Of a stretch of 64,000 nt of DNA, positions 12,840-31,730 are shown in pieces (position 1 is the first letter of the stretch; the number at the start of each line of letters is the position of its first letter). Under the pieces are notes generated by a model. The model was not told where the DNA came from. It was given only the letters and a program-made list of their open reading frames with translations, and ran no database searches. The translations under genes were made by a program, and so were the position numbers. This DNA comes from an uncultured Sphaerochaeta sp. Lineage in GTDB: Bacteria > Spirochaetota > Spirochaetia > Sphaerochaetales > Sphaerochaetaceae. The stretch is taken from the NCBI RefSeq assembly GCF_963677315.2, contig NZ_CAXXMJ010000002.1, positions 516,006 to 580,005 on the forward strand. Direction: 5' to 3'.

Positions 12840-13090
12840 GGTTTTTCTACTTACCATAGCTTATAGTATGTTTTTAGGTATAAATTTATACCTTCAGCTA
12901 AGTGTAAACCTTTACAATACTCTCGAACTAGTAGGAAAATTTATTGAAATTGGACGATATGTTTCCTTGCAATATCGATATATTTGGATTGGTATGGAGT
13001 AGTTTTCCTGCTCTCTTTTTGCATGGATCAGTGCCTAATTGCCAAGAAAATTGGTGGTAATTTTTGCATGAATACTGCATAGTAAAAACC

Positions 13091-16000: not shown

Positions 16001-16555
16001 GGGAATTCCGGAAAAACTACCCTCTTGATGGACCTGCTTGAGTCAATTCATCAGAGAAATGAGAAAGTGTTGGTTTTCACCCAATATGCCCAAATGGGGT
16101 TCTTGCTTCAAGAGTTGTTGAAAGAATCATTTTCACTGGAAGCTCCCTTCCTGCACGGAGGTTCTACCAGGACACAGCGTGATGCAATGGTGAAGCAATT
16201 CCAATCTGATCCTGAATGCTGGCTGATGCTTCTCTCAATTCGAGCAGGGGGTACTGGATTGAATCTTACATCTGCAAGCCATGTGATTCACTATGATCTA
16301 TGGTGGAATCCAGCTGTGGAGAACCAAGCAACCGACCGTGCGTTCAGGATTGGGCAAGACAAACAGGTAACTGTCCATCGGCTTATCACAGAAGGGACCT
16401 TTGAGGAACGCATCAACGATATGCTCACTTCTAAAAAAGATTTGGCTGACAGTGTTGTATCGGCAGGGGAGAATTGGATAACTGAGCTCTCAACTGAACA
16501 GCTGAAAGAACTCATAGAATTGAGGGAGAGCCATACAGAGACAGCCCCCCGTTAA
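13091..16555 (+). CDS. SNF2-family helicase/translocase with an N-terminal SWIM zinc-finger domain
   Basis: SWIM motif CSCPDWAVPCKHLAAV. SNF2 motifs LADDMGLGKT (I), ILDEAQAIKN (II), MTGTPVENR, and helicase-C motifs LSIRAGGTGLNLT and QATDRAFRIGQ. Start set at ATG 13091 (MAYTEYGNTWWGARWL); the listed start is TTG 13064. No clear SD. Confidence 0.85.
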   Translation: MAYTEYGNTWWGARWLDSLTQIDYSNRIPRGKRYARNGSVLSIKSSNGMVEARVQGTRATPYKIIVGISQYTKADNKRLIDLIRENPYYLGSLQTGELPPELEQECMAIGIKLFPQSWKDLGMQCSCPDWAVPCKHLAAVIYMIANEIDKDPFLIFRLHGLDVQSSLLNSGSTVKEQIPTLDSLTLINGKGGSTGLGELDLQVIPDMKPVLERVLTEAPLFAPQYDFKRDYLSYISSLAKQTTKFVNQLEIPQQIPSILYDECKINYQGKTMQGVLKQGKGKLAFSSQEMDGCLSYLQSFPIGSTEEYPPVLSLLLFTHNFALRLLQTHGAIPRLLDLGKDQYILHWIPAYFNPEIKAITDSLTARLQDKDLVFIDSKPADKLQQIFLMVSLFVRSYSDLFVDITNIPETDEHALFFAGAPYRIRTLAQRGNPLAIHHWLGRLMLTIRSHRPVLWMKETEKDTFQCTIQVKEADKEPIDLSLFLSENTETAAMLQDLSYLGTYFNPIQKALMARGSTTVTGDEFLDAWFNALPALKALGVSMIIPRSLQKTLSPRVSVRMSTSSGGSAESFLALRDLLDVSWTIVLGEDSIDPETLQSMLDQGRKYVAFKDQYVLLDEKEIGRINHRLEKSIKLSPLDLLKAHLLGTYDEQPVMMEKGVQELFGSLLQINPTPVPSEVNASLRPYQERGFQWLMHNHAIGLGSLLADDMGLGKTIQVITFLVALKNKKIITQKKPVLIVVPASLMTNWEHEISRFAPSLSTFVYHGQNRQLEKGSDCIITTYATVRRDSELLQKTRFSVTILDEAQAIKNRDSAQAKSVSKLKSDHSIAMTGTPVENRMLDYWSIIDCVMKGYLGNQTSFKSHFAIPIERYHDQAALKAFRSLTKPLMLRRVKTDTSIINDLPEKLVLERYANLSLEQKVLYKGIVEQTEKTLQGADGIEKKGSVFKLMTALKQVCCHPALYCDTSSKESGNSGKTTLLMDLLESIHQRNEKVLVFTQYAQMGFLLQELLKESFSLEAPFLHGGSTRTQRDAMVKQFQSDPECWLMLLSIRAGGTGLNLTSASHVIHYDLWWNPAVENQATDRAFRIGQDKQVTVHRLITEGTFEERINDMLTSKKDLADSVVSAGENWITELSTEQLKELIELRESHTETAPR

Positions 16556-16587: not shown

Positions 16588-18012
16588 TTACGGCTTGAAG
16601 ATCTTAACCTTCTGCTCCCGCTTGATCCGGTCACGTCCCTCTTGCAGGCTTTCCAGTTCACCGGTAGCCCAGGCTTGGACAACCAAGTTACCTAAAGCTG
16701 TTGCTTCCACCGGTCCTGCATACACAGGTAGACCGGTTTCAGTGGCTGCCCATTGGTCGAGAATCTCGTTCTTGCATCCGCCACCAATAATATGCAGGGC
16801 TGCAAACTTCTTCCCGATTACAACCTCCAGATCGCTGATTGCCTTTGCATAGGCCTTGGCAAGTCCTCGATAGATGGCAACCATGTACTCGCCATGGTTG
16901 GAAGGAGCGGGAAGATCATGCTCCTGGCACCAGGCATCAATCCTGTCAGTCATCAAATTATCGTGACTATTGGGTTTAAGGAACCGGGTATCAGAGGGAT
17001 CGATGTACCCTTGATAATCCGTACAGCGAAGTGTTTCCTCATCAAGCTCTTTCCACTTGATCTCCTGACCTTCCCTTTCCCAGTGTCTGACACACTCCTG
17101 TTGTATCCACATCCCCATGATATTCTTGAGAAATCGGATACCACCGCTGGCTGCCACCTCATTGGTAAACCCACTCTCCATGGAAGCTTGGTCAGTTCGG
17201 GGTTCAGAAAGTTCAACTCCCAGAAGTGACCAGGTACCGCTGGAGATGTACAGGGGCGTCCCTCCAGCCTCAGCAGGAACGGCAGCAACTGCACTCGCAG
17301 TATCATGAGCAGCACTTGCAATCACGACCACCTCAGAGGAGGCACCCACTTCGTGGGCAACATCCGTGGTCAAGCTTCCCAATACAGTACCACTGTCAAC
17401 GATTTCCCCAAACAAGGAACGCTCAAAACCCATATCATCGATTAGGTCCCATGCCCATGTTTTTTGCTTTGGGTCGTACAATTGCGTGGTAGAAGCGTGG
17501 GTACGTTCATTCTTCATGATCCCAGTCAACCAATAGGCAAGCAGGTCTGGTACCGACAGGTAGTGAGATGCCGCCTTCAGTGTTTCAGGGCGATCACGTT
17601 TCATGGCAGCAAGTTGATAGAGAGTATTGAAGGGTTGGAAGGCAATTCCGGTTCTCTCATAGATCCGCATCTTCCCTCCCAACTGCTTCGCCACCTGCTC
17701 GATCAACCCATCGGTTCTGCTGTCACGATAGTGATAGCAAAGGGAGACCAAGCCCCCTTTGTCATCAGTAAGCACATAGTCAACGCCCCAGGTGTCAATA
17801 CCGATGGAGGTGATATCACTCCCATACTTGGTAAAAGCCTTCTTCAGTCCCACCTTGATCTCGGCGAACAGGCTCTGGATGTTCCAATAGAACTCCCCCA
17901 GTATCTGGTCGTTTTGGGTGACAAACCGATGTACGACTTCAAACTCACCGAGGTCCCCGACGAGAACTCGGCCGTTGGAAGCACCTAAGTCGATGGCGAT
18001 ATGCTTTTTCAT
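16588..18012 (-). CDS. rhaB: Rhamnulokinase (FGGY kinase family)
   Basis: Near end-to-end hand alignment with E. coli RhaB (from memory): AIDLGASNGRV, IGIDTWGVDYVL, YRDSRT, FQPFNTLYQL, SSGTWSL, LKNIMGMW, HIIGGGCKNE, AGPVEATALGN. Confidence 0.9.
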   Translation of the reverse strand: MKKHIAIDLGASNGRVLVGDLGEFEVVHRFVTQNDQILGEFYWNIQSLFAEIKVGLKKAFTKYGSDITSIGIDTWGVDYVLTDDKGGLVSLCYHYRDSRTDGLIEQVAKQLGGKMRIYERTGIAFQPFNTLYQLAAMKRDRPETLKAASHYLSVPDLLAYWLTGIMKNERTHASTTQLYDPKQKTWAWDLIDDMGFERSLFGEIVDSGTVLGSLTTDVAHEVGASSEVVVIASAAHDTASAVAAVPAEAGGTPLYISSGTWSLLGVELSEPRTDQASMESGFTNEVAASGGIRFLKNIMGMWIQQECVRHWEREGQEIKWKELDEETLRCTDYQGYIDPSDTRFLKPNSHDNLMTDRIDAWCQEHDLPAPSNHGEYMVAIYRGLAKAYAKAISDLEVVIGKKFAALHIIGGGCKNEILDQWAATETGLPVYAGPVEATALGNLVVQAWATGELESLQEGRDRIKREQKVKIFKP

Positions 18013-18014
18013 AA

Positions 18015-19289
18015 TTACTCCTTGATTCGTTTCTTGCAGTTTTCCAAGAGGTAGGCTTCTGCTTCAGCTGACCACAATCCATTGTGCTTATCAACAAGCT
18101 TTGCAAGTTCAGCAAACACCTCATTGGTTTTACCCAGTTCAGCAAGATCGGTCAGTGCTGTGAGGGGGAAGTCAAGATGAGTATACATCATCTTCTTTCC
18201 ACCAGGGATATTTGGCAGGTTGATCACTGCCTCGGGAACTGCTGAGAGCCCTCCGATATGGGTTACCATTGCTGCAGGGTTGATCAACCTCTTTTCCATC
18301 AGGTGCAATGACTCTCTCATATCATCGGTATTACCACCACTGGTACCCACAATGTGTGTGGAAGCGTAGTGCACGTTGTAGAAGTTCATGCTTGCAGTGA
18401 AATCTGTTTTGTTTGGACCGGCGAAGAAATTCAGACAACCATCCTTTGCGAGGATTGCATCGGCCTGCTCTACCAGCATTCTTACAGGAGCCATGACCAG
18501 CACATCATCGTAGCCCTTTCCATCAGTGTATTCCATCAAGGTTGCATTCGGGTCACTGTAGTTCTTGGTATTGACGTAGATCAGCTCAACCCCGTTCTGC
18601 TTGGCATCCTCAACGCTGTACAGATCCTGTGCACGTTTGAGGCGTGCATCATCTATGTCGGTAACGACCAAGCGACCGGGCTTACGATCAGGGTTGTGCA
18701 CTGCATAGTCAATTGCAGAGAGCCCCATGGGGCCAACCCCGGCAAGAATTGCCATATTGCCACCCTCGACGATTCCCATCTTGTGCTCATACGAACCATT
18801 AGTCGTGTGGTACATGGCGTGGAAGGTTCCAACGACACAGGAAACAGGTTCAGCAAGACTTCCGAGGAAGAAGGCATCCCCATCATAAGGGAGCAAGCAA
18901 TCCAGTTCCATTACCTGATGAGGGATCACCACATAGGTTGCGTCCCCTCCGATGTACTGGAACGAATATCCAGGGGCATCAAGGGTACCCTGGTAATTCA
19001 AAGCTGGCTGGATAGAGAAACGTGAACCAACCTTGAACTTATCCTGCCACTTCTTTCCTACCTCAACGATTTCTCCACAGAACTCATGACCCAGCATGAT
19101 CGGGTTCTTGTCGACATCATCGGGGACTCTCTTATGGCTTGCACCCTGCTCAGCGGCCTTGTGGTCGCTCATGCAGATACTATTGGTTATCACTTTTGCG
19201 AGGATTTCGTCCTCAGCAATCTGGGGAAGTTCAAACTCTTCGAGGCGAAGATCATTCACTCCATACAGACGGATAGCACGTGTTTTCAT
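18015..19289 (-). CDS. Long (424-aa) Zn-dependent MDR dehydrogenase, ketose-1-phosphate-reductase (SorE)-like
   Basis: GHEFCGEIVEVG Zn motif and GVGPMGL Rossmann motif. The length and N-terminus (MKTRAIRLYGVNDLRLEEFELPQI..ILAKV..SICMSDHK) resemble L-sorbose-1-P reductases as I remember them; this is unverified. Start at ATG 19289 with AGGAG 7 nt upstream and the SDR stop inside the SD region. Confidence 0.6.
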   Translation of the reverse strand: MKTRAIRLYGVNDLRLEEFELPQIAEDEILAKVITNSICMSDHKAAEQGASHKRVPDDVDKNPIMLGHEFCGEIVEVGKKWQDKFKVGSRFSIQPALNYQGTLDAPGYSFQYIGGDATYVVIPHQVMELDCLLPYDGDAFFLGSLAEPVSCVVGTFHAMYHTTNGSYEHKMGIVEGGNMAILAGVGPMGLSAIDYAVHNPDRKPGRLVVTDIDDARLKRAQDLYSVEDAKQNGVELIYVNTKNYSDPNATLMEYTDGKGYDDVLVMAPVRMLVEQADAILAKDGCLNFFAGPNKTDFTASMNFYNVHYASTHIVGTSGGNTDDMRESLHLMEKRLINPAAMVTHIGGLSAVPEAVINLPNIPGGKKMMYTHLDFPLTALTDLAELGKTNEVFAELAKLVDKHNGLWSAEAEAYLLENCKKRIKE

Positions 19290-19299
19290 TTCTATTCTC

Positions 19300-20460
19300 C
19301 TAATTAAGCATGACCTGGCCACCGGTTACGGGAACCGCCTGACCTGTCTCGTAGGTCTGTTCGACTATGTAGAGAAGTGCCTTCATGACGTCCTCTGTGC
19401 GACATCCACGATTCATCGGCACCTTCGATTCATAGAACCGTCTTACATCGGCAACACTTTTCGCTCCTGGAACCTTTCCCGCTTCCAGGTACTGCACGAA
19501 CAACCCTCTCTTCGGGTCCGACCAAAGCGGACCGTCAAGGAAGTTGCCCGGACAGATTGCGTTGACCTTAATGTTATCCTCAACCAGCTCCAGAGCAAAA
19601 CTCTGTGTAAGTCCGATGGTCCCAAATTTGGCACCGGCATAGGCGCCATTCTTATTGGAACCTTCCAATCCGGACTTACTGGAGATGGCAATAATATCAG
19701 TAAAATACGAAGCACTGGGAATATTCTGCAAAGCCATCAGTCTGGAGGCAAACTTTGTGCAGATAAAGAATCCAGTATAGTCAACGTTGGTAACAAACTG
19801 GAAATCCTTCAACTCCATCACCTTCACTGAACCGGCACGAAGAACCCCTGCATTGGAGACAAACAGATCCAATCCACCGGTCTCTTCAGCTACCTGATTC
19901 ATCATAGCCTCGACACTCTTCTCATCAGTAACATTGACTGTGAGCGGTTTGGAAACAGTGATGCAGGCTTCCCAGTTCAGCTCATCACTGAGCTTTTTTG
20001 CCCCATCTGCGTTCATATCTGCTATATAGACAAAGGCTCCATGCTCAACAAGGGAGCGAACCATGCCCTCCCCAAAACCTTGGGCACCACCGGTAACCAA
20101 GGCTACCTTGTCTCGAACGACATCTGCCCGACTGAATGTAGGAGGAAGCGTGGGGAGCAAGCTTACCCCTTCCGCCCTAAAGGCCTCATCATAGTTGGTC
20201 CCGAGCCCGTACTGAAGGTCCATTCCTGCAATTCCTATTACAAAAGGGAAAACCTTTCTCTCTGAAGTGTAGGCATCGAGCAACTTCTTCCACGCCATTG
20301 AGGTCTCTTCGATGCTTGCAAACTCTTGTGGAGATGGCAAGGAAAGGTCCACCTTCTTGCCAGTGACACGGTGTATAAACAAACCTTTCTGACCATCAAA
20401 GGTCAAGCCACGAAGCACTGGGGGAATTTCAAAGTTAATCTGTTCTGTAAACGTAGTCAT
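19300..20460 (-). CDS. SDR-family oxidoreductase, sorbitol-6-P dehydrogenase (SrlD)-like core with a ~120-aa N-terminal extension
   Basis: The core from VALVTGGAQGFG through YAGAKFG to TGGQVMLN aligns with E. coli SrlD (from memory). The first ~120 aa have no SDR motifs. The AAGGAG SD overlaps the PHP gene stop. Confidence 0.7.
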   Translation of the reverse strand: MTTFTEQINFEIPPVLRGLTFDGQKGLFIHRVTGKKVDLSLPSPQEFASIEETSMAWKKLLDAYTSERKVFPFVIGIAGMDLQYGLGTNYDEAFRAEGVSLLPTLPPTFSRADVVRDKVALVTGGAQGFGEGMVRSLVEHGAFVYIADMNADGAKKLSDELNWEACITVSKPLTVNVTDEKSVEAMMNQVAEETGGLDLFVSNAGVLRAGSVKVMELKDFQFVTNVDYTGFFICTKFASRLMALQNIPSASYFTDIIAISSKSGLEGSNKNGAYAGAKFGTIGLTQSFALELVEDNIKVNAICPGNFLDGPLWSDPKRGLFVQYLEAGKVPGAKSVADVRRFYESKVPMNRGCRTEDVMKALLYIVEQTYETGQAVPVTGGQVMLN

Positions 20461-20469
20461 TGCTTCTCC

Positions 20470-21786
20470 TTAGAACTGTTGCACGAGGGAATATGGGTCA
20501 TGGGTATTCATTTTTCTTCCTAGTGCTGCGTAATGTTTCAACTTCTCATCGAGAGAAGACCCCGACATTGGATTTTGAGGATGGAACAGACCAAGCGTAT
20601 CATCACAGGAGGCGAGCTTCTCATGCGCTACCAGCGCCCAAGCTGCATCAACGAGATGCCTGGCCGTAGGTTCCAACAACTCAGGACAGTTCATACTCTG
20701 CCTGCTGCTGTTGATATCGACCCCACTGATCTCCATCAGGTTTCTCTCCCTGGCAAGCTTCTGCAAACGAAGCATCTGCTCCTTGGTATTGCGAGGAGGC
20801 ATATAGGTCACCGCAGGGAAGCCAATATCCACTAGCAGGTCCAGCAGCTCCTCCAGAAACTCATCCTCAAACTTCTCTGCCTTCTTATCCCCGGTCACAC
20901 TCTCAGCCACATCCCCAAGATAGGCATAGGCTGCGATAGCACCAATGCTGTTGGCAAAGGAGACTACCTCACGAACATCCAGACACTCCTCCTTGGAAGG
21001 TTGGATGAAAAACCGAGGAAGGAAGGTACTCTTGTAGACTCCCAAGAGATCATATGCATAGTGGGGATTGTCCTTGTCCAACAACCAATCCTGCACCTTT
21101 CCAGCGAGGGTTAGTCCCAGGTCCTTCTTGAGGAAGTGGACCAGGTTCTCCCCTTTTCCAAACATGGCGATACTCTGGTTTGCCATAGCATAGAGAATGT
21201 GCCGTTCAGTAACAGAACCCCCTTTGTCAGCTCTGCTTAGGGGGAGAACATCCCTTTCAAAATCAAGGTCGAAGCCAAACGTCCCTACCAGAGCCTGCAA
21301 AGCTTCCACTTGTGCCTTGTTGCGTTGGTTTCGAATCGCCTGGACAGGCTTCAGGAACTCCTCGACTGTAGCGATATGCTGTTTAGGAACTCCGTGGACG
21401 CACATATAGGCTATTCCGATGCTGTCCGGATTGTTGAGCTTTCTATCTGCGAGCGGAGTATCGAGAAAACTCGTTCTCAGCTCGAATCCTACCGTACTGG
21501 CAATCCCGATATTCTGTGCTGCTTCCAGCATCTCCTGTGCCGCACCAATGCTGTCATGGTCAATACTACCCACAATACCCAGCCCTGCCTTCCAGGCAGC
21601 ATACGCTGCTGCAGAAGGCTCATAGGGACTGAATGAGTAGGTGGTATGCACATGATTGTTCACCTCTTCAAGCGCGGTCCTCTTAAGAGAGCCACCTTGA
21701 ATCAGGGAACCAATCTCACTACTCGAGGTAAGTCGAGTAGTAAGATCTCTATCATTGATGCTTTTTTCAAGCTGTTTCAAATCCAT
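20470..21786 (-). CDS. PHP (polymerase/histidinol-phosphatase) domain metal-dependent phosphoesterase, function unknown
   Basis: N-terminal PHP motif NNHVHTTYSFS, then GSIDHDS. 438 aa. AAGGAAAG SD directly after the E1 stop. Confidence 0.6.
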   Translation of the reverse strand: MDLKQLEKSINDRDLTTRLTSSSEIGSLIQGGSLKRTALEEVNNHVHTTYSFSPYEPSAAAYAAWKAGLGIVGSIDHDSIGAAQEMLEAAQNIGIASTVGFELRTSFLDTPLADRKLNNPDSIGIAYMCVHGVPKQHIATVEEFLKPVQAIRNQRNKAQVEALQALVGTFGFDLDFERDVLPLSRADKGGSVTERHILYAMANQSIAMFGKGENLVHFLKKDLGLTLAGKVQDWLLDKDNPHYAYDLLGVYKSTFLPRFFIQPSKEECLDVREVVSFANSIGAIAAYAYLGDVAESVTGDKKAEKFEDEFLEELLDLLVDIGFPAVTYMPPRNTKEQMLRLQKLARERNLMEISGVDINSSRQSMNCPELLEPTARHLVDAAWALVAHEKLASCDDTLGLFHPQNPMSGSSLDEKLKHYAALGRKMNTHDPYSLVQQF

Positions 21787-21798
21787 GGGCTTTCCTTA

Positions 21799-24252
21799 TC
21801 AGACGCCGAGTCTGCTTGTCCTAAAGAACTCACCGTCAGTGAAATTGCTCTGGGGGACATATTCGGGAATCGGCAAAATCTGTTCGTGGATGGCATCCAG
21901 TACCGAGTACGCCTGTGCAAAGTAGTACTCCTCCATTTCTGCTGGCGGTGTGATCCAGTTCTTCGACCCGACCACAATTGTCGGAGCATCGAGATAGTCA
22001 AAGGCAAGCCTGCTGAGGTTGGAGCTTACGGTGTGCAGATAACTGCCACGTTCTGAGCTGTCGGTCACGAAGACTGCTCTTCCCGTCTTCTTCACTGATT
22101 CGATCAACAACTCATACTTGAGTGGGTTGATCCATCTCAGGTCGATCACCTCTGCCTCAATCCCCTTCTCGGCAAGCTGTTCTGCTGCCTTGGTTGCTGT
22201 ATAGAGAGCGGGTCCAAGGGCAATAAGCGTTACATCCTTACCTTCCCTTCTGATTACCGGTTCTCCTTCAGGAATCTCGTAGTAGCCCTCGGGAACACCT
22301 TCCTTCACGAACATCTCGCCAATTCCATAGAGTTTCTGGCTCTCAAAGAATACCACAGGGTCAGTACCACGGAGTGCGTAATTGAGCATGCCTTTCACAT
22401 CATACGGTGTTGCAGGATACATTGCCTTCAATCCGGGGACGGAAGCGACCATGCTGGTCCATTCCTGTGAGTGCTGTGCACCATACTTGTTACCAACTGA
22501 TACACGGAGCACAAGTGGCATCTTCAGGACACCGGCGCTCATTGCCTGCCATTTGGGCATCTGGTTGAATACCTCATCCCCTGCACAACCAAGGAAGTCA
22601 CAGTACATCAACTCGACAACTGCTCGTCCACCGGCCATCGCGTAGCCTACACCGCTTCCGACAATTGCTGATTCAGCGATTGGGGAGTTGAAGAAACGGG
22701 AAGGAGGAAGCAGTTCGGTAAGACCGCGGTAGCAGGCAAATGCCCCACCCCAATCTCGGTGATCCTCTCCATAGGCAACCATCGTCGGGTCAATGGAGAA
22801 GCGATGTGCCATTGCCTCGAAGACCGCATCACGATACTGGTACTGCTTTGCAGCAGGCAGTTCCTTGCCGTTCTCGTCGTAGGCATAGCGACTTCTGCGG
22901 GCAATCTGCTTCACCCTTGCATTGTCTTCCAGCTTCTCGAGGAGTACTGGTTCGCCATCATCAAGCTTCTCAACACTACCATTGGAGAACATCACGGACT
23001 CGACAAAATGCTCATCCACCATAGGGCTGAGTACCGGATCAACGGTAATCTCGAGTGTCTTTCTCATCTTCTCTTCAAGGACCGTATCAAACTGATCAAG
23101 CTCTTCCTGGCTTACAACTTTGTTCTCCAGGAGATAGTTGCCGTAGGCTACGATTGGATCCTGGTTACGGAATGCTTCCAGCTCTTCCTTCGTTCTGTAG
23201 GTCATTGCATCACTGGGGCTATGGCCGCTGTAGCGGTAGGTGATGGTATCCATGAACGCTGGACCCTCTCCCTTGAGGAGGATTTCTTTCTTGCGTGCCG
23301 TGGCATCTGCTACAGCAAGAGGGTTGAATCCATCAACACGCTCGGTGTGCATGGAGTATTCGTTGATAGCAGAGGCAACCCTTGCAGCAACCTTGTAGCC
23401 CATGGTCTCACCAACAGGCTGACCGCCCATGGCATAGAGGTTGTCAAAACAGTTGAGCATGAAAGGAGGATATCCTGGATTGTCTTCCCAGAGAGTCTTG
23501 TACTGGTCCATGGAGGATAGTACCAATCCTTCATAGACAGGACCACGTGCAAGCGCTCCATCACCGATATTGGCAATAACGATTCCCTTCTTTCGGTTGA
23601 TCTTCTTATAGAGGGAAGCACCTACTGCTATGGTACAGGAACCTCCGACAATTGCGTTGTTGGGCATGCTTCCAAAGGGCTTGAAGAAGGTATGCATTGA
23701 ACCACCAAGACCTGCTGAGAATCCAGGCTTCTTGGCATAAATTTCTGCCAATGCACCGTACAGTACAAAGTTCTCTGCAAGGTCACGAACATTCTCTCCG
23801 GGGAAGTGCTTCTCTACAATCTTGTAGGTCCCCCCATCCATGAATGACTCCATGATGGCAAGCAGTTCCTTGTCCTCCATCTTATAGATCGCACTCATGC
23901 TCTTGGCGAGAATCTCACCATGGCTACGGTGTGAACCAAAGATCTGATCCTCTGGATCGAGTACCATTGCCTGCCCGACAGCAGCACTTTCCTGACCGGA
24001 TGAGAGGTGGGCTGGTCCACGGTGGTTGTATGAAATTCCCTGATACACACCCTCTTTCTTGATGGTGTCCAACATGGTCTCAAATTTTCTAATCAAGAGC
24101 ATGTCATAGTAAGCACGGATCAGGCGTTCCTTTCCGTATTGCTTGAGCTCTTTCTTGATGTTGCTCTTGTACTGGTTAACAGGAATCGAGGGTGTTTCAA
24201 TAGTGAGAGGCTCCCTCAATTTTGCTGGATCAAATGGTATCGTTCTGGCCAT
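21799..24252 (-). CDS. Fused E1 alpha-beta component of a 2-oxoacid/acetoin dehydrogenase complex (TPP-dependent)
   Basis: Alpha half: GSHRSHGE, GLGGSMH, TPP motif NIGDGALARG. Beta half: FNSPIAESAIVGSGVGYAMAGGRAVVELMYCDF, then a transketolase-C-like end. Single uninterrupted 817-aa ORF. Confidence 0.8.
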   Translation of the reverse strand: MARTIPFDPAKLREPLTIETPSIPVNQYKSNIKKELKQYGKERLIRAYYDMLLIRKFETMLDTIKKEGVYQGISYNHRGPAHLSSGQESAAVGQAMVLDPEDQIFGSHRSHGEILAKSMSAIYKMEDKELLAIMESFMDGGTYKIVEKHFPGENVRDLAENFVLYGALAEIYAKKPGFSAGLGGSMHTFFKPFGSMPNNAIVGGSCTIAVGASLYKKINRKKGIVIANIGDGALARGPVYEGLVLSSMDQYKTLWEDNPGYPPFMLNCFDNLYAMGGQPVGETMGYKVAARVASAINEYSMHTERVDGFNPLAVADATARKKEILLKGEGPAFMDTITYRYSGHSPSDAMTYRTKEELEAFRNQDPIVAYGNYLLENKVVSQEELDQFDTVLEEKMRKTLEITVDPVLSPMVDEHFVESVMFSNGSVEKLDDGEPVLLEKLEDNARVKQIARRSRYAYDENGKELPAAKQYQYRDAVFEAMAHRFSIDPTMVAYGEDHRDWGGAFACYRGLTELLPPSRFFNSPIAESAIVGSGVGYAMAGGRAVVELMYCDFLGCAGDEVFNQMPKWQAMSAGVLKMPLVLRVSVGNKYGAQHSQEWTSMVASVPGLKAMYPATPYDVKGMLNYALRGTDPVVFFESQKLYGIGEMFVKEGVPEGYYEIPEGEPVIRREGKDVTLIALGPALYTATKAAEQLAEKGIEAEVIDLRWINPLKYELLIESVKKTGRAVFVTDSSERGSYLHTVSSNLSRLAFDYLDAPTIVVGSKNWITPPAEMEEYYFAQAYSVLDAIHEQILPIPEYVPQSNFTDGEFFRTSRLGV

Positions 24253-24263
24253 ATTGTTACTCC

Positions 24264-25616
24264 TTACAGACTATGGTCGAGTGCAAAGCAAGCATCCTTG
24301 ATAAGCTCGGATACACTCGGGTGTGGAAATACTATCTCTTTGACGTCCTGGACTCTTAGCTCTGCTTCAATGAGAGCAGAAGCGCCCCAGATAATCTCGC
24401 TGCTGTAGGGTCCCAGCAGATGAACTCCAAGAATGGCACCACTTTCCTGGTGACAGATCACTTTCACCAAGCCTGATGCACGCTTGCCTTGCTCAGCAAG
24501 GAAACGACCGTTTGCACGCATCTGTACGGTTTGACTCTTCACAGGAATGCCTTTCTCCTTGGCTTCCTTTTCTGTGATGCCACAACCAGCTGCCTCGGGA
24601 TTCGAGTAAACAGCCCAGGGAATTGCGTTGTAGCGCATGCGCATCTCTTTTGAACCGAAGATATTGGAGATGGCAACTTCTGCCATGCGGGATGCACTAT
24701 GGGCAAGGAGGGAGCGACCATTCACATCACCGATTGCCCAGATATTGGCAACATTGGTCTGCAGACGGTCATTTACCACTACCCCTTGTCGGTCGATATC
24801 CACTCCAAGCTTCTCCAGCCCCTGCGTGTTCGGCCTACGCCCAACACTCATCAGGACCAGCGCTGCTTCAGTGGACTGTTTATTTCCTTTGGCATCGGTA
24901 TAGAACACTGCTTCCTTGGTAATTTCCTCTACCTTGCAACCAAGGCGGAAGTCCACTTCCTTAAGCTCGCGTCTCATCAGCTTGGCGAATTCACCATCCA
25001 TCATGGGGAGAATTTCATCCATCATCTCTATGACGGTGACCTTGGTCCCAATCATGGAGAAGAACGAGGCAAATTCGATCCCGATAACCCCACCCCCGAT
25101 GACAACGAGAGATTTGGGCACTTTCTCGAGATCCAGGATCTCATTACTGGTAAGCACATGCTCCAGCTTTGCACCAGGGATAGGTGGAACAAAAGCGGAA
25201 GAGCCGGTAGCGATCATCAGGTAAGAACCTTCGTAGATGGTATCACCTACTTTCACATGATGAGGGTCAATGAATTCAGCTTCACCAAAAACTGTTTCCA
25301 CCTTGTTCGATTTCATCAGGAACTCTATACCACTCCTGAGTGTCCCCACCGTATCATTCTTCCAGATCATTGCATCAGGGAGGCTGAATGTCACCGAAGC
25401 AGCCTCAACACCATGTTTTGCACCATCAAGTGCATGATGGTAGAGTTTCGCACTATTGAGAAGACTCTTGGTGGGGATACACCCCCAGTTTGTACAGACT
25501 CCTCCAAGGTGCCCTCTCTCTATGAGCAGGACCTTCTTGCCAAGTGCCCCTGCTCTTTCTGCGGCAACATATCCGCCAGGACCGCTGCCAACTACGATTA
25601 AATCATATTTACTCAT
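24264..25616 (-). CDS. lpd: Dihydrolipoyl dehydrogenase (E3)
   Basis: FAD motif VVGSGPGGY, redox disulfide CTNWGCIPTK, NAD motif VIGGGVIGIE, C-terminal HPSVSE. Confidence 0.9.
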   Translation of the reverse strand: MSKYDLIVVGSGPGGYVAAERAGALGKKVLLIERGHLGGVCTNWGCIPTKSLLNSAKLYHHALDGAKHGVEAASVTFSLPDAMIWKNDTVGTLRSGIEFLMKSNKVETVFGEAEFIDPHHVKVGDTIYEGSYLMIATGSSAFVPPIPGAKLEHVLTSNEILDLEKVPKSLVVIGGGVIGIEFASFFSMIGTKVTVIEMMDEILPMMDGEFAKLMRRELKEVDFRLGCKVEEITKEAVFYTDAKGNKQSTEAALVLMSVGRRPNTQGLEKLGVDIDRQGVVVNDRLQTNVANIWAIGDVNGRSLLAHSASRMAEVAISNIFGSKEMRMRYNAIPWAVYSNPEAAGCGITEKEAKEKGIPVKSQTVQMRANGRFLAEQGKRASGLVKVICHQESGAILGVHLLGPYSSEIIWGASALIEAELRVQDVKEIVFPHPSVSELIKDACFALDHSL

Positions 25617-25625
25617 GTATCCTCC

Positions 25626-26960
25626 CTACAGTGCCAACAAGAGATCAATGGAGGCGATGTTGTCCATCAAGGCTTTCAGGAAGCGTGCAGCATCTGCACC
25701 ATCGACTGCCTGGTGGTCCATTGTCAGCGAGAGACCAATCTTTTCAATAAAGACGATATCCCCATCCTCATCCTCTACAGGTGTGAGGGTAATGCCGCCA
25801 ACCCCAAGGATTGCAACCTCAGGCACGTTGAGTACCGGGGTGAATGCATCAATACCAAAGGCTCCTACATTACTTACCGTGAAGGTTGAACCACTGAGTT
25901 CGTCAGGCTGGGCACTTCCTTCCTTGCACTTATCAATCAGGGCCTTGGTCTCTTCAGAGAGCTGGCGGAGGCTGAGCATGTCACTATTGCGCACCACAGG
26001 GACCAGAAGACCCTTCGGTGTGTCGGTAGCGACACCAAGATGCACATGACTAAAGCGCAGCATCTTATCTCCAAGGAAGTGTGCATTGAAGGCAGGGAAC
26101 TCCAACAAGGTTCTGCTGACGGCAAAGAGAATCAAGTCATTGATCGTAACCTTGTTCAAACCAAGCTCACTCTTGGCACTCTTGAATCCTGCTCTCAGAC
26201 GTTTCAGGGCACGTGCATCAGCCTGGGCATGAAGGGTAAGCTGGCATGTGGAATGAATGGATTCCATCATCCTCCTGGCAGTCACCTTTCTCACTCCCTT
26301 CACAGGTATCTCCTGAATCTCTTCAGAGACTTCTCCCATGCGTGATGGGGCAGCAATCGCAGGTTTCACCTGTAGGTCTGAAGAGAGGACTCTTCCTCCC
26401 ATGCCACTACCACGTCCTGGAGCCTGGAGCCCCTGTTCAAGTGCCTGCTCTCTTGCAACCGGACTGAGAGGCTCTCCAGCCACTGAGGCTACATCACGTT
26501 CAATGATGCGGCCTTTCGGACCGGTGGGCTGTACAGAGGAGAGAGATACTCCCATGGAGGAAGCCAGATTGCGTGCCCTGGGGCTGGAGCCCTGAGCCTT
26601 GTCGGCCGTAGAGGGAGGAGTAGCTTTTTCAGGTTGTGTATCCTCAGCTGTTGCTGTTTCCTGTTTCTCTTCCTTTGGTTCTTCTTTATTGGTTTCTGTC
26701 TTGGGAAGCTCGACCTTCTCGCCTTCCTCTCCGACCATGACGATGGGAACCATTACGGGAACATCATCCCCTTCCTCATACAGTAAGGCCAGGACTACAC
26801 CTTCAGCGGTCGATTCAACGTCAATGGTTGACTTATCGGTCTCTGCTGAGCATAGGACATCCCCTACAGCAACCTTGTCACCTACTTTGACATTCCATTC
26901 CACAATAATGCAGGATTCCACTGAGTTTCCCTGTTTGGGCATCACAACTTGTTGTGCCAT
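25626..26960 (-). CDS. Dihydrolipoamide acyltransferase (E2) with one lipoyl domain
   Basis: Lipoyl-lysine motif SAETDKST, a Pro/Glu/Lys-rich linker, a subunit-binding domain (GPKGRIIERDV) and the catalytic motif DHQAVDGADAARF. Confidence 0.85.
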   Translation of the reverse strand: MAQQVVMPKQGNSVESCIIVEWNVKVGDKVAVGDVLCSAETDKSTIDVESTAEGVVLALLYEEGDDVPVMVPIVMVGEEGEKVELPKTETNKEEPKEEKQETATAEDTQPEKATPPSTADKAQGSSPRARNLASSMGVSLSSVQPTGPKGRIIERDVASVAGEPLSPVAREQALEQGLQAPGRGSGMGGRVLSSDLQVKPAIAAPSRMGEVSEEIQEIPVKGVRKVTARRMMESIHSTCQLTLHAQADARALKRLRAGFKSAKSELGLNKVTINDLILFAVSRTLLEFPAFNAHFLGDKMLRFSHVHLGVATDTPKGLLVPVVRNSDMLSLRQLSEETKALIDKCKEGSAQPDELSGSTFTVSNVGAFGIDAFTPVLNVPEVAILGVGGITLTPVEDEDGDIVFIEKIGLSLTMDHQAVDGADAARFLKALMDNIASIDLLLAL

Positions 26961-26972
26961 GTGTTCACTCCT

Positions 26973-27737
26973 CTACTTTGCAATAAGGACCTCAACACCC
27001 TGCTCCTCGAGCTGGGTGATCAGGTCCGCAGGAAAACCACTGTCTGTGACAATGGTATCTATCTCTGTTACCGGCATAATCCGCACAAACCCACGATTCC
27101 CCACTTTTGAGGAATCAACGCACAAAACCCGCCGTGTGGCTTGTGCGCACATACGTTGTACCACCTGTGCATTTTCGATCAAGCTGGTGGTAAGTCCATG
27201 TTCCATGGTAAATCCATCTGTACCGAAGAAGGTGGTGGATACATGGTAGTTCTCTATCTGGGAAATGGCAGCAGGCCCGACAAGGGCCTCGGCTTCGCTT
27301 CGGTACTCACCACCAACCAGTGTGACCTGGAGCTGGGTATTTGCCCGTGCATAGGGCAGAATAAGCGTTGAATTGGTAACCACCCGTACATTTCTTTTCC
27401 CGAATATGTGTCTGGGAATCAGGGAACAGGTGGACCCATTGGTAATCATGATAAAGTCATTATCCTTCACCAAGGTGGCAGCAAGTTTTGCAATCAGGTC
27501 TTTTTTTGGAGTATTGGTATCGTCACGAAAGGCTGCTTGGGGAGCGGATGCAACCACGACCCGGCCGTGGCTTCGTATAACCAGTCCTTTGGAATCCAGA
27601 TCCCGTAAATCTCCCCTGATGGTAACCGCAGAAACTCCAAGCTCTTCGCTGAGCCTGGATACAGGATACTCTTCACCACTTTTCAGAAGCTGGAGTATGT
27701 GTTTTTCCCGAGGGGAAAGCCCTATCATATGATACAC
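26973..27737 (-). CDS. DeoR/GlpR-family transcriptional regulator
   Basis: N-terminal wHTH (YPVSRLSEELGVSAVTIRGDLRDLDSKGLV) plus a DeoR C-terminal sugar-phosphate sensor domain. It is the first gene of the tightly packed 8-gene unit. Confidence 0.85.
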   Translation of the reverse strand: MYHMIGLSPREKHILQLLKSGEEYPVSRLSEELGVSAVTIRGDLRDLDSKGLVIRSHGRVVVASAPQAAFRDDTNTPKKDLIAKLAATLVKDNDFIMITNGSTCSLIPRHIFGKRNVRVVTNSTLILPYARANTQLQVTLVGGEYRSEAEALVGPAAISQIENYHVSTTFFGTDGFTMEHGLTTSLIENAQVVQRMCAQATRRVLCVDSSKVGNRGFVRIMPVTEIDTIVTDSGFPADLITQLEEQGVEVLIAK

Positions 27738-27770
27738 TCCTACTTTCTTATCACTTTCGTTACGCTTTCG

Positions 27771-27799
27771 ATTCTATTACAGTATCGCTAACTTTTCAA
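27771..27799 (-). promoter_or_regulatory. Sigma70-type promoter candidate for the deoR-to-rhaB unit
   Basis: The minus strand reads TTGAAA-17 nt-TAGAAT, 34 nt upstream of the deoR ATG. It is flanked by CGAAAG / TTTCGAAA repeats. Confidence 0.55.
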
Positions 27800-27819: not shown

Positions 27820-28131
27820 TCAATCCATATGAAAGACTTCCTCCAAGGGAAGCGAGATTGGGGAGTTGTCTTCATTCGTGTCCATAATATCAGCCATATA
27901 GGCCCACCACTTCTGGACAATGGGGTTGGAGCCAAGATCCTGGCTCCCCGACTCTCCCTCTGATTTCTGAAAAGCAAAGAGGAGACCACTGTCCCGGTCA
28001 AGAAAAATGGTATAGTCGAAAACCCCACTTTCCTTGAGAAGCGCCTTCAGCTCCGGCCAAATCTCATCATGACGCTTCTTGTACTCTTGTTCATATCCTT
28101 TCTTCAACTGCATGACAAATGCCTGTCTCAT
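27820..28131 (-). CDS. rhaM: L-rhamnose mutarotase
   Basis: 103 aa. It aligns by eye with E. coli RhaM/YiiL (from memory): AFVMQ, YKKRHDEIWPEL, LLFAF, QKWWAYMADIM, DNSP. Confidence 0.9.
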   Translation of the reverse strand: MRQAFVMQLKKGYEQEYKKRHDEIWPELKALLKESGVFDYTIFLDRDSGLLFAFQKSEGESGSQDLGSNPIVQKWWAYMADIMDTNEDNSPISLPLEEVFHMD

Positions 28132-28144
28132 GGGATGATCCCTC

Positions 28145-29188
28145 CTAATTTCTACTCATTTGCTGGAGTCGTAGCTTCCTGTTTGCCTTGTACATATCAA
28201 GCAATCGGGGAAGAAGAACCGCAGAGATGAGAAGCAATCCAATGACAATGGTCATCAGGGTTCCACTGAACTTCAACAAGCCCATACCGAACTTCAAGTA
28301 ACCGACCAACATGGAGCCAATGAAAACACCATACACACTTCCCTTGCCCCCGGTGATGGCAACACCACCAAGCACAACGAGGGTGATGATTTCCAAATCC
28401 CATCCGGTGGCAATGTTTGAGCGTACAGAGAGAATTCGACTGGCCAACAGTATAGAGGTAAGACCACAGAAGAATCCGGTAACGGTGAAGTTGATTATCC
28501 TCATGGTCTTTACCTTGATACCGGAGAACCGAGCCGCTTCAGCACTGTTTCCGATGGCATACAATCTTCTTCCATACGTTGTCTTATGCAAGACAAACGC
28601 AAAGACCAAAACCAAGACCAAGTAGAGAACAAACTCAAAGGGGATAATGGTACCAGGTATGAATTGCTGACCAAAGAACCCAAAATTCTCTGGGAATTCA
28701 GTACGTGCCTGATCTCCCAACAAACCAATTGCAATTCCCCTGAATACCGACTGTGTCGCAAGGGTGACCGCGATGGCCGGCATCTCGAGGGCTGTAATCA
28801 TCACCCCGTTGAATAACCCAGCGAGGGTTCCAACAAGTAGGGCAATGAATATAAGGGAAGGAATGGAAGCTCCCCCCTGTGCAGCATTGCCTACCGCATA
28901 TGCACAAAGAGCAATAATGGAGGCAATCGAGATGTCGATGTCACCACACATGATGATGAAGATCATAGGAAGGGCCATGATTGCCTTCTCACTGAATTGG
29001 AACGTTGCATTCATCAAATTGAACCAATCAAGGAAGTACGGGGTTCTGATAGTGAAAAAAACGAACACCAGTACAATGATAATGGAGAGCAGAACTTCCC
29101 ACTGGGTAAAATATTCAATCAACCGGTTCTTAAGCGACATTTCATCGATAAGCCGGGATTTTGCTACCAAATCTCTCTTTTCAGCCAT
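28145..29188 (-). CDS. rhaQ: Rhamnose-type CUT2 ABC transporter permease
   Basis: Polytopic RbsC-like permease. Position and order match the Rhizobium-type rhaSTPQ nomenclature, and it lies next to rhaM. Confidence 0.75.
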   Translation of the reverse strand: MAEKRDLVAKSRLIDEMSLKNRLIEYFTQWEVLLSIIIVLVFVFFTIRTPYFLDWFNLMNATFQFSEKAIMALPMIFIIMCGDIDISIASIIALCAYAVGNAAQGGASIPSLIFIALLVGTLAGLFNGVMITALEMPAIAVTLATQSVFRGIAIGLLGDQARTEFPENFGFFGQQFIPGTIIPFEFVLYLVLVLVFAFVLHKTTYGRRLYAIGNSAEAARFSGIKVKTMRIINFTVTGFFCGLTSILLASRILSVRSNIATGWDLEIITLVVLGGVAITGGKGSVYGVFIGSMLVGYLKFGMGLLKFSGTLMTIVIGLLLISAVLLPRLLDMYKANRKLRLQQMSRN

Positions 29189-29190
29189 AC

Positions 29191-30192
29191 CTAGCCTCTC
29201 CTCTGAGCAAGCAGCTTCTTCGTCTTTCGCTGGTCGCTGATGGTGTTGAGCGTCAATGCGATGAGAATGATCAAGCCTTGGACGAATGTTTGCCAGAAAA
29301 CTGACAGGTAGATAACCGGCAACGCATTGGTGACCACACCAAGGAAGAGCGTCCCCAGGACCACCCCGATAATGCCACCGGAGCCACCGGCGAAGTTGAC
29401 CCCACCAAGTACACAGGCTGCTACTGCCTGCATTTCAAACCCAGTTGCCATCTCATTCACTGCAGAAGCATAACGAGCGGTCCACAGAGCCCCTGCAAGG
29501 CCACAGAGCGTTCCACTGATAAGGAATACCACAACCCTGACCCTGCTCTCATTCACTCCTACAAATTTTGCTGCTGTCGGGTTTCCCCCGATTGCATAGA
29601 CTTCTCGTCCTGTGCGCGTATACCTGCTGAAGTAATAGAATACAGCAATGACAATAATGGCAATCCAGAGAAGGTTAGAAATTCCGAGGAAACTATTACG
29701 AGGGAAATCTATGTAGGATTTACTCATCTCATGGGCTGTAACCCACGTACCTCCACTGAGGAGAAAGGTAAGCCCGCGATAGATATTCACCGTACCCAAT
29801 GTGGTAATGATCGGGGGAATTTTTCCATAGGCAACCAACACACCATTGAAGAGACCCATCACCATTCCAATGCCCATTCCTGCAAGCAAGAGGAGCAAGG
29901 GGCTGACTGTAGGATTTGCCTCATTGATCATACCGGTAGCCATACCTGTGAAGGCGATAATGGAACCTACCGATAGGTCAATCCCGTTTGAGAGGATTAC
30001 ATAGAACTCACCAATGGCGACAATGGACAGGATAGCCATGTCGTTAAGGATAGTGGAGATGTTCTTCGCAGAAAGGAACTGCGGAGAGCGAACTGAAATC
30101 GGCACCAGGAGCACCACCAACAATACGGTGAGGGTTGCCTCCCTTCGGGCCAGTGCTTTCTTTACAAAGGAGGAGAAGGATAAGTCAGGCAT
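29191..30192 (-). CDS. rhaP: Rhamnose-type CUT2 ABC transporter permease
   Basis: Polytopic RbsC-like permease. Start placed at ATG 30192, with GGAGG 7 nt upstream and an 8-nt overlap with the ATPase stop. The listed start is 30225. Confidence 0.75.
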   Translation of the reverse strand: MPDLSFSSFVKKALARREATLTVLLVVLLVPISVRSPQFLSAKNISTILNDMAILSIVAIGEFYVILSNGIDLSVGSIIAFTGMATGMINEANPTVSPLLLLLAGMGIGMVMGLFNGVLVAYGKIPPIITTLGTVNIYRGLTFLLSGGTWVTAHEMSKSYIDFPRNSFLGISNLLWIAIIVIAVFYYFSRYTRTGREVYAIGGNPTAAKFVGVNESRVRVVVFLISGTLCGLAGALWTARYASAVNEMATGFEMQAVAACVLGGVNFAGGSGGIIGVVLGTLFLGVVTNALPVIYLSVFWQTFVQGLIILIALTLNTISDQRKTKKLLAQRRG

Positions 30193-31702: not shown

Positions 31703-31730
31703 TGTTCCTCCTTATGCAAGCAGATGCAAA

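Follow-up and report, generated by a model that had tools for sequence, protein, structure and literature searches.

L-Rhamnose and L-fucose count among the main sugars of pectin, fucoidan, mucin and bacterial glycans, and in the textbook anaerobic routes half of each molecule is lost as 1,2-propanediol or lactate. In the L-sorbose pathway, a ketose 1-phosphate is reduced to a hexitol phosphate by SorE (L-sorbose-1-P becoming D-glucitol-6-P) and then converted to a ketose 6-phosphate by SorD/SrlD. In 1-deoxy-D-xylulose-5-phosphate synthase (DXS), thiamine diphosphate acts on the acetyl-carbinol bond of a 1-deoxy-2-ketose phosphate, in the synthetic, non-oxidative direction from pyruvate and without lipoyl partners. 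Homologues of the sorbose enzymes, of a rhamnulokinase and of a thiamine- and lipoyl-dependent dehydrogenase complex stand together in one operon of an uncultured Sphaerochaeta sp., the subject of this study. The window, i.e., the whole stretch of DNA analyzed, is 64,000 nt long (NCBI RefSeq assembly GCF_963677315.2, contig NZ_CAXXMJ010000002.1, positions 516,006 to 580,005 of the forward strand). Judged from sequence, the operon may encode a second route for the 6-deoxy-L-hexoses rhamnose and fucose, in which a carbonyl shift is followed by cleavage to acetyl-CoA and a tetrose 4-phosphate; we give this proposal an even chance of being correct.

The DeoR-led operon and its redox pair

The first-pass annotation had described eight minus-strand genes at 16588-27737; their order was recovered as given, and the domain content agrees with the labels:

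26973-27737, minus strand: DeoR-family regulator (HTH_DeoR and DeoRC), probable start ATG 27728 or GTG 27737; the first block gene in most loci
25626-26960, minus strand: E2 dihydrolipoyl acyltransferase, with lipoyl, E3-binding and 2-oxoacid_dh catalytic domains
24264-25616, minus strand: E3 dihydrolipoyl dehydrogenase, 450 aa (TIGR01350, 488 bits, above the cut-off of 409)
21799-24252, minus strand: fused E1 alpha-beta, thiamine-diphosphate dependent, 817 aa (E1_dh, Transket_pyr and Transketolase_C)
20470-21786, minus strand: PHP-fold protein, 438 aa, COG0613-like with a helical insertion
19300-20460, minus strand: SrlD-like short-chain dehydrogenase/reductase (SDR), 386 aa, SDR core at residues 109-385
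18015-19289, minus strand: SorE-family zinc-dependent medium-chain dehydrogenase/reductase (MDR), 424 aa counted from ATG, proposed ketose-1-phosphate reductase
16588-18012, minus strand: RhaB-like FGGY kinase (TIGR02627 rhamnulokinase, 439 bits)

The spacers, announced as 2-12 nt, measure 12, 9, 11, 12, 9, 10 and 2 nt, and a Shine-Dalgarno motif (GGAG, AGGAG or AAGGA) does precede each of the eight starts. The kinase starts 2 nt past the MDR stop, and these two genes are translationally coupled. Also as first described, the operon lies directly downstream of rhaM (27820-28131) and an ABC transporter (28145-32787). For comparison, a scan with the PHP protein, using one genome per species, gave 80 loci, onto which all window proteins were mapped.

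Over 98-100% of its length, the MDR shares 51-54% identity with annotated sorE of Klebsiella, Serratia and Citrobacter and with yggP of E. coli; its SorE-like label thus holds over the full length. The Klebsiella match is located in a typical sor operon, with a SorC regulator, an SDR, the sorbose phosphotransferase system (PTS) and sorE. No such PTS context surrounds the window MDR, whose partner is the rhamnulokinase-like gene. Its nearest solved structures are ketose reductase and the sorbitol and xylitol dehydrogenases. The catalytic zinc ligands Cys39, His68 and Glu69 are kept, and the motif GVGPMG...D marks an Asp-type NAD fold. Some MDRs of the block carry the source annotation "L-sorbose 1-phosphate reductase", and the MDR is among the best conserved block genes (62-99% identity across the mapped loci).

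The SDR core, compared with 213 NCBIfam families, matches sorbitol-6-P dehydrogenase best (PRK12384, 231.6 bits), well ahead of the RhaEW model (132 bits). It scores 159 bits against SrlD in the Protein Data Bank (PDB; 5o3z) and is 37-38% identical to srlD genes, so that the SrlD-like assignment stands. The YxxxK and TGxxxGxG motifs are present. Residues 1-108 form an N-terminal extension without a Pfam or NCBIfam match, which appears to be conserved, as the orthologues are likewise 357-421 aa long. A derivation of this extension from a leftover aldolase domain was rejected, since BLAST shows no similarity to the aldolase-like protein of the window. From the two homologies together, the MDR and the SDR are therefore the enzyme pair of the L-sorbose pathway. 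For the kinase, rhamnulokinase is by far the best family (fuculokinase, 146 bits), and its orthologue in locus L040 is in the same operon as fucI; the enzyme probably phosphorylates rhamnulose, possibly also fuculose.

Applied to a 6-deoxyhexose, this set would work as follows. RhaA or FucI would isomerize the sugar and the RhaB-like kinase would phosphorylate it to the ketose 1-phosphate, of which the MDR would reduce C2 to give a 6-deoxyhexitol 1-phosphate. The SDR would then oxidize the penultimate carbon, beside the methyl group, to a 1-deoxy-2-ketohexose 6-phosphate, a methyl alpha-hydroxy-ketone. The fused E1 would cut its C2-C3 bond as in acetoin cleavage and pass the acetyl group to lipoyl-E2, yielding acetyl-CoA; E3 would yield NADH, and a tetrose 4-phosphate would be freed. 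The PHP protein and/or an RhaE-like protein encoded elsewhere in the window would correct or process the tetrose phosphate for entry into the pentose-phosphate pathway. Per sugar, one NADH, one acetyl-CoA and a C4 phosphate would be gained. In comparison with the propanediol route, this predicts more ATP, yet also more reducing equivalents for disposal.

With the stereochemistry of SorE, L-rhamnulose-1-P would become 6-deoxy-L-glucitol-1-P (= 1-deoxy-D-gulitol-6-P), and L-fuculose-1-P would become L-fucitol-1-P. The carbon that SrlD oxidizes in glucitol-6-P would have the same configuration in both deoxyhexitol phosphates; an SrlD-type oxidation would lead to 1-deoxy-D-sorbose-6-P in the rhamnose branch and 1-deoxy-D-tagatose-6-P in the fucose branch. 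Both branches would end in acetyl-lipoamide and D-threose-4-P, or, with opposite hydride delivery, L-erythrose-4-P, the same pair of tetroses to which the earlier bookkeeping had led. Rhamnose and fucose would converge on one tetrose phosphate because their sole difference, C4, becomes the aldehyde carbon, and this convergence fits a single block serving both rhaA and fucI loci.

The dehydrogenase complex and the conserved block

E2 carries the lipoyl motif ETDKS and the catalytic motif DHQAVDG. Among solved structures, the beta half of E1 is about equally similar to the E1-beta of pyruvate dehydrogenase (PDH) and of branched-chain 2-oxoacid dehydrogenase (BCKDH) (196 to 140 bits); for the alpha half, only the human-type E1-alpha was matched, weakly (99 bits). 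None of the curated PDH E1 equivalogs was reached (229 bits vs. 321 and 454; 190 vs. 394; 127 vs. 411), and the beta part resembles the dxs models weakly (70 bits). Close relatives, 120 among the matches listed, are 815-819 aa long and 67-100% identical, with generic annotation throughout. A tblastn search of plasmids revealed two further orthologues, 48-51% identical:

L082, Rhizobium sp. CIAT894 plasmid pRheCIAT894b, 10806-17615: fused E1 orthologue cluster
L083, A. tumefaciens plasmid pAt15955, 10375-24927: fused E1 orthologue cluster

In both clusters, the gene after E1 encodes a 78-aa lipoyl protein that matches the N-terminal part of AcoC (64.5 bits), and an alpha/beta hydrolase matching the C-terminal part (177.7 bits) comes next. 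Their surroundings include a PfkB fructokinase-like kinase, a SorC-type regulator, a psicose-epimerase-like protein, a ribokinase, RbsD/FucU and sugar ABC transporters, as well as a mannitol-dehydrogenase-family gene, xylB (FGGY) and lipA. The two plasmid clusters may represent a related ketose-phosphate-cleaving system in culturable bacteria.

In a neighbor-joining tree, one clade unites the window E1 with four distant orthologues and both fused E1s of Rhizobiaceae. Only topology and identities were used from this tree, the bootstraps being erratic, probably through a rooting artefact of the Biopython support routine. E1 is 33-36% identical to the acetoin E1s of Acinetobacter (aco-budC cluster), Caballeronia (acoXABC) and C. 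difficile (acoABCL), and 27% identical to Bacillus PdhAB. The acetoin-type label of the first-pass annotation is hence upheld in part: E1 stands apart from the Bacillus PDH reference, and it forms a clade of its own, not one within the acetoin enzymes. By its sequence, it is nearer to the acetoin type than to Bacillus PDH and yet a separate family, found in sugar-phosphate contexts of two unrelated settings.

A second clade of fused E1s, at about 33% identity, occurs on a Rhodovulum plasmid (L091, 5339-10366) and a Citricoccus plasmid (L092, 7004-12180), each E1 being accompanied by an E2 and two SDR genes under a GntR regulator. The E3s of Kiritimatiellota and Verrucomicrobiota (L072, L095, L098) are approximately 570 aa long, and that of Tichowtungia aerotolerans (L095, 3326-5047) has an additional lipoyl domain at its N-terminus. 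A comparable length is seen for lpdA of the C. difficile aco cluster (L086); the 450-aa window E3 is without the extra domain.

The order DeoR-E2-E3-E1-PHP-SDR-MDR recurs in dozens of loci, the most distant at 45-60% protein identity. E1 is directly upstream of PHP in 52 of the 65 loci with enough sequence, the SDR directly downstream of PHP in 57/72, and the MDR is present in 61/72. A RhaB-like kinase (at least 45% identity) was found in 44 of 63 informative loci, so the gene order beside a rhaB-like kinase, raised earlier as a point to check, does recur. The carriers include Sphaerochaeta, Pleomorphochaeta, Marispirochaeta, Alkalispirochaeta, Kiritimatiellales/Pontiellaceae, Verrucomicrobiota and one Atribacteria metagenome-assembled genome (MAG); proteins identical to the window PHP and E1 are recorded at NCBI for an uncultured Sphaerochaeta. 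In the cultured Tichowtungia aerotolerans, DeoR to MDR form an isolated seven-gene unit, and on another contig, of 4.4 Mb, an FGGY kinase follows the seven-gene block. The fixed E2-E3-E1-PHP-SDR-MDR order across phyla, together with the E1-PHP adjacency, makes chance co-location unlikely.

The block is also tied to the isomerases of both sugars. rhaA and the aldolase-like gene stand beside it in L010, L035, L036, L038 and L046, and FucI homologues (61-69% identity) adjoin it in seven loci (L040, L042, L043, L054, L080, L065 and L076). In L040, L042 and L043, the operon reads fucI-E2-E3-E1-PHP-SDR-MDR-kinase, and an aldolase homologue is absent within 21 kb. In Oceanispirochaeta (L052, L055, L058), as in one Pontiella MAG (L079), the next genes after the block or the kinase encode a HAD hydrolase and a transketolase. 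One further locus contains gene fusions:

L049, groundwater Spirochaetes MAG JACRPF010000014.1, 8828-16195: two gene fusions, then MDR, lipB and lipA downstream

The first fusion (840 aa) joins a mannitol-dehydrogenase-family domain to PHP. The second (654 aa) has a class II aldolase domain N-terminal to the SDR; the window aldolase-like protein aligns to residues 8-375 and the SDR core to 380-653.

The PHP protein scores only 17.9 bits against Pfam PHP. Its AlphaFold model (pLDDT 93.5) nevertheless has the PHP fold, with Foldseek probabilities of 1.00 to 3e0f, 2yb1 and 9etk; the best structural matches are COG0613 PHP phosphoesterases (E-values 8e-10 to 3e-8, target TM approximately 0.72). 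HxH, DHD, Glu102, His131 and Asp357 are kept, and two motifs are altered: the Asp of "SDG" is Phe52, and the C-terminal DxH is D357-x-N359 (the sequence alignment to PDB structures covers residues 45-107 only). Under the metal-ligand scheme, which we take to be that of the trinuclear site of L. lactis histidinol phosphatase, these two replacements suggest that the third metal site is lost or degenerate. The family is large and highly conserved (7,942 of 8,000 scored candidates matched), and no homologue was present among 72,556 plasmids. Solitary PHP homologues (L061, L062, L064, L069, L071, L077) have housekeeping neighbors and are uninformative on function. PHP is the gene tied most tightly to E1; L072 and L074 hold DeoR-E2-E3-E1-PHP only. 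Our best guess, made with low confidence, is that it acts on the phosphorylated C4 product as an isomerase, epimerase or phosphatase.

This tight E1-PHP pair, seen also in L072 and L074, would suit a different order of steps, in which the SDR oxidizes C5 of the ketose-1-P to a 2,5-diketo compound (like 6-deoxy-5-ketofructose-1-P), E1 takes acetyl-CoA from it, the MDR reduces the remaining C4 keto-aldehyde phosphate to a tetrulose or tetritol phosphate, and PHP isomerizes or dephosphorylates the latter. Every block gene, PHP included, would be used, and the mannitol-dehydrogenase-PHP fusion of L049 suggests that a polyol-phosphate dehydrogenase and PHP act on neighboring intermediates. However, the SorE and SrlD homologies better suit hexose and hexitol phosphates, the 2-nt spacer between MDR and kinase suggests consecutive steps, and by our own bookkeeping the net ATP would be zero if the C4 product were dephosphorylated. 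We consider this order quite improbable.

The phosphoesterase fold of PHP also allows an electron sink, in which the MDR and PHP turn the ketose-1-P into a deoxyhexitol-1-P and then a free deoxyhexitol, the dehydrogenase complex being co-located or housekeeping. The same L049 fusion recalls the bifunctional mannitol-1-P dehydrogenase/phosphatase (NF046057). In such a scheme, however, the ATP of the kinase would be wasted, and the E1-PHP adjacency, the block order fixed across phyla, the operator that the block conserves for itself (see below) and the apparently degenerate third metal site all speak against it, so that a sink of this kind seems very improbable indeed.

The class II aldolase-like gene at 42670-43749, which the first-pass annotation had listed as a caveat, is present as described. 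It is not, however, an unrelated neighbor: its product is RhaE-like, and the gene is linked to the block both in L049 and in the Atribacteria locus L067, where a shorter homologue leads the operon AldII-rhaB-E2-E1. The protein aligns to the N-terminal half of "bifunctional aldolase/SDR" (RhaEW-type) models, with 117 bits to NF006196. Against RhaEW TIGR02632 it scores 92.8 bits, and the SDR 132 bits, for a cut-off of 567.75. In the window the two genes are separate, approximately 22 kb apart; a fusion of the two is seen in L049 alone. The GGGNTS phosphate loop, the SVE glutamate, HxH and a third His are kept, with roles that we presume by analogy with FucA.

These links bring in a more conventional explanation. 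The RhaE-like aldolase would yield dihydroxyacetone phosphate (DHAP) and L-lactaldehyde, a RhaW-like SDR would oxidize the latter to L-lactate, which would lead to pyruvate, and E1E2E3 would be an ordinary PDH within the rhamnose/fucose regulon. The L049 aldolase-SDR fusion and the L067 operon fit it, as do the alignment of AldII to the N-terminal half of the bifunctional models, the RhaEW score of the SDR and an Ldh_2-family gene in the window (49669-50688). The activity has been observed in vitro, where RhaEW converts rhamnulose-1-P to DHAP and L-lactate (Rodionova et al. 2013, PMC3870299). Convergence as such does not separate the two explanations, because here too, as in the classical routes, rhamnose and fucose would meet, at lactaldehyde. 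However, the SorE-family MDR, well conserved and coupled to the kinase, would be left without a role, as would the PHP protein, and the conserved block has no lactate dehydrogenase. E1 shares 27% identity with Bacillus PDH and scores below every PDH cut-off, its orthologues pair with AcoC-type E2 beside sugar kinases, and the fucI-block-kinase operons lack an aldolase within 21 kb. We hold this explanation to be unlikely.

Two functions of the aldolase-like protein are possible. It may be a genuine ketose-1-P aldolase, serving a parallel classical branch or the rival pathway. Alternatively, it may epimerize C4 of the 1-deoxy-ketohexose-6-P, by analogy with AraD, so that E1 would free D-erythrose-4-P. 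In the characterized system, neither DHAP nor lactate was formed without NAD+ (PMC3870299), and for this reason the characterized RhaEW relatives may not be simple aldolases; their mechanism is perhaps worth re-examination.

Several observations weigh against the proposed route. The predicted tetrose, D-threose-4-P or L-erythrose-4-P, is no central metabolite, and PHP, although the closest partner of E1, is without a step in the favored scheme. The SDR core is below the PRK12384 cut-off (231.6 vs. 307 bits), the kinase is below both rhamnulokinase equivalogs (TIGR02627, 439 vs. 528; PRK10640, 393 vs. 639 bits), and E1 is below all NCBIfam equivalog cut-offs. E1 also falls outside the acetoin clade, in a tree whose small reference set contained no bona fide BCKDH or housekeeping proteobacterial PDH. 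The linkage of the aldolase-fold gene to the block, by fusion to the SDR in L049 and within one operon in L067, is the RhaEW architecture. Finally, the parts of the block can be separated: in Oceanispirochaeta, SDR-MDR-kinase is found without E1E2E3 within 10 kb, and in L072 and L074 neither an SDR nor an MDR gene is near E2-E3-E1-PHP.

Fermentation of L-fucose by Pontiella desulfatans F1 yields H2, acetate and ethanol but no 1,2-propanediol, and no known fucK or aldA gene was identified in this strain (PMC6388578, PMC7356697). This agrees with the proposed route, though as circumstantial evidence. In its most extended form, the proposal would be a widespread carbon-conserving rhamnose and fucose route of anaerobic polysaccharide degraders (Sphaerochaeta, other Spirochaetota, Kiritimatiellota, Verrucomicrobiota and Atribacteria). 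The carbonyl would be moved to C5, a new acetoin-dehydrogenase-like clade would cleave, and an RhaE-like 4-epimerase and/or a PHP tetrose-phosphate isomerase would deliver D-erythrose 4-phosphate to transketolase. In this full form we consider it less likely than not.

Regulation and genomic surroundings

Two features precede the DeoR gene:

27799-27794 (-35, TTGAAA) and 27776-27771 (-10, TAGAAT), minus strand: promoter-like site with a spacing of 17, the top match in the region
27765-27769, 27754-27758 and 27743-27747, minus strand: three GAAAG boxes with 11-nt spacing, candidate DeoR operator

The promoter suggested earlier at 27771-27799 is the best regional match, and it is conserved in orthologues. 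The scan alone, on the other hand, does not exceed chance (16 matches in the region vs. 17.9 expected), and a terminator scan likewise gave a count equal to chance. The site is judged real because of its conservation across species and not because of the scan counts: the pattern TTGN-N17-20-TAnnAT is present in 36 of 40 orthologous leaders. GAAAG repeats with 11-nt spacing, within 70 nt of the DeoR start, occur in 33 of these 40 leaders vs. 1% in shuffles. Within the window, GAAAG-N6-GAAAG is confined to the DeoR leader (2 hits vs. 0.16 expected).

An operator common to the DeoR operon and the other rha operons was sought and none was found; the other three share a different, 26-nt motif, AAAATCGTGCTAAAAATTGACTATTC. 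Allowing three mismatches, it occurs in three copies on the minus strand (45065-45090, 41492-41517 and 32932-32957), which head the rhaA-aldolase-SBF operon, the oligosaccharide-uptake operon (SBP-ABC-GH106) and the rhaS transporter operon (rhaSTPQM), respectively. Conservation around it reaches approximately 45 nt, and it is not present in the DeoR operon leader. The motif is probably the binding site and promoter of the AraC regulator at 45094-45963. It marks a second, AraC-type regulon from which the DeoR operon is excluded; the DeoR-led block is thus regulated independently, with its own DeoR protein as the probable repressor.

The neighboring genes with a bearing on deoxy-sugars are the following:

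27820-32787, minus strand: rhaM mutarotase and rhamnose-type ABC transporter (permeases, ATPase, binding protein)
42670-43749, minus strand: RhaE-like class II aldolase-fold protein, 359 aa
43746-45011, minus strand: rhaA isomerase (RhaA match, 580 bits)
45960-46415, minus strand: FucU mutarotase
46489-48315, plus strand: L-fucose isomerase FucI
49669-50688: Ldh_2-family (malate/L-lactate dehydrogenase 2) gene

Further upstream on the strand of the operon are an oligosaccharide ABC system, a GH106-like protein, an aconitase/LeuCD-type pair, an SBF-family transporter, the aldolase-fold gene and rhaA. The AraC regulator is divergent, and beyond it follow FucU, FucI, a 412-aa open reading frame (ORF) and the Ldh_2-family gene. 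The 412-aa ORF has no Pfam match even at E = 0.1. The annotated window ORFs of at least 150 aa include neither a RhaD or FucA equivalog nor a gene of the FucO or AldA type, and no fuculokinase or fuculose-phosphate aldolase was seen among the annotated ORFs near FucU/FucI (45960-50688). No Rfam RNA family was found across the whole window.

The aconitase/3-isopropylmalate-dehydratase-type large and small subunits (33189-34951, minus strand; 518 and 156 bits, above the subfamily cut-offs) begin 12 nt past the GH106-like gene, within the rhamno-oligosaccharide uptake operon. The SBF/PanS-like sodium-symporter-family transporter (41723-42664, minus strand) is the final gene of the rhaA-aldolase operon and does not stand beside rhaA-aldolase in the related loci examined. 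At 3873-7920, a short transaldolase/fructose-6-P-aldolase family gene (225 aa) is beside an AraC-type regulator with a periplasmic-binding-like domain, an aldo-keto reductase and a second zinc-dependent alcohol dehydrogenase; the transaldolase might play a part in handling erythrose-4-P. A 1163-aa SNF2-family helicase with DUF3670 (13064-16555, plus strand) is convergent with the kinase gene, with 32 nt between the stops, and an AddAB-like helicase-nuclease pair (50667-56659, minus strand) is located downstream of the fucose genes. Both appear to be unrelated to the deoxy-sugar operon.

Comparison with known systems

The first-pass annotation knew of no such route, and no account of it was found in the open-access papers and bioRxiv preprints searched, in which the terms "threose 4-phosphate" and "rhamnulose-1-phosphate reductase" do not occur. 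If the proposal is right, predicted ATP yields would change, with more acetate, ethanol and H2 and without propanediol, and so would cross-feeding in the gut, in digesters and in marine sediments. Lipoyl-dependent dehydrogenase complexes would extend from 2-oxo acids and acetoin to sugar phosphates, this being the first sugar-phosphate substrate of a 2-oxoacid-dehydrogenase-type complex, and propanediol-free fucose fermentation would be explained. Functions would also be gained for very common genes labeled "alpha-ketoacid dehydrogenase subunit alpha/beta", "zinc-binding dehydrogenase" and "PHP domain protein". The relatives in Rhizobium and Agrobacterium point to a broader family of 1-deoxy-ketose-phosphate-cleaving systems.

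Like the acetoin dehydrogenase system (AcoA/AcoB, AcoC, AcoL), the block combines a thiamine-dependent alpha/beta-type E1 with a lipoyl-E2 and an E3, and the proposed chemistry would be analogous, CH3-CO-CHOH-R giving acetyl-lipoamide and an aldehyde. The Rhizobiaceae orthologues use an AcoC-type hydrolase E2, and the lipoyl domain of the Kiritimatiellota E3 is as in the C. difficile aco lpdA. The block E1, on the contrary, is a single 817-aa chain in a separate clade, its gene setting is that of deoxyhexoses, and the proposed substrate is a sugar phosphate. Neither acetoin/2,3-butanediol genes nor a sigma-54 AcoR-type regulator is found in the window, whereas the reference loci L084 and L089 do have such links.

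The L-sorbose pathway shares the logic of the proposed redox steps: C2 of a ketose 1-phosphate is reduced, and then the other penultimate carbon is oxidized. Unlike that pathway, the block has no sorbose PTS, its partner is a rhamnulokinase-like FGGY kinase, the SDR has the additional 108-aa N-terminal domain, and the product would be a 1-deoxy ketose instead of fructose-6-P. RhaEW also combines a class II aldolase-fold domain with an SDR in rha loci, fused as in L049 where the window has separate genes. The window parts, however, reach 93 and 132 bits for a cut-off of 568, and the SDR is closer to SrlD. SorE-like, PHP and E1E2E3 neighbors are likewise not reported for RhaEW loci, these terms being absent from Rodionova et al. 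2013, which mentions neither spirochaetes nor dehydrogenase complexes (PMC3870299).

With the canonical RhaA-RhaB-RhaD and FucI-FucK-FucA pathways (followed by FucO or AldA), the window has RhaA, a RhaB-like kinase, RhaM, FucI, FucU and an ABC transporter in common; the difference is that the kinase gene shares its operon with the redox and cleavage block and not with an aldolase gene. The COG0613 phosphoesterases (Bad_1165, the 3',5'-bisphosphate nucleotidase Cv1693, RNase AM) have the fold and the HxH, DHD, E and H motifs of the block PHP. The latter is approximately 150 aa longer, with a large helical insertion, and has Phe for the SDG Asp and DxN for DxH. DXS acts on the same bond type as the proposed E1 cleavage, in the opposite direction and without lipoyl partners. 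Every enzyme family of the operon is hence known; what appears to be new, and is undescribed in the literature searched, is their combination into a putative deoxyhexose route ending in the lipoyl-dependent ketol cleavage of a sugar phosphate.

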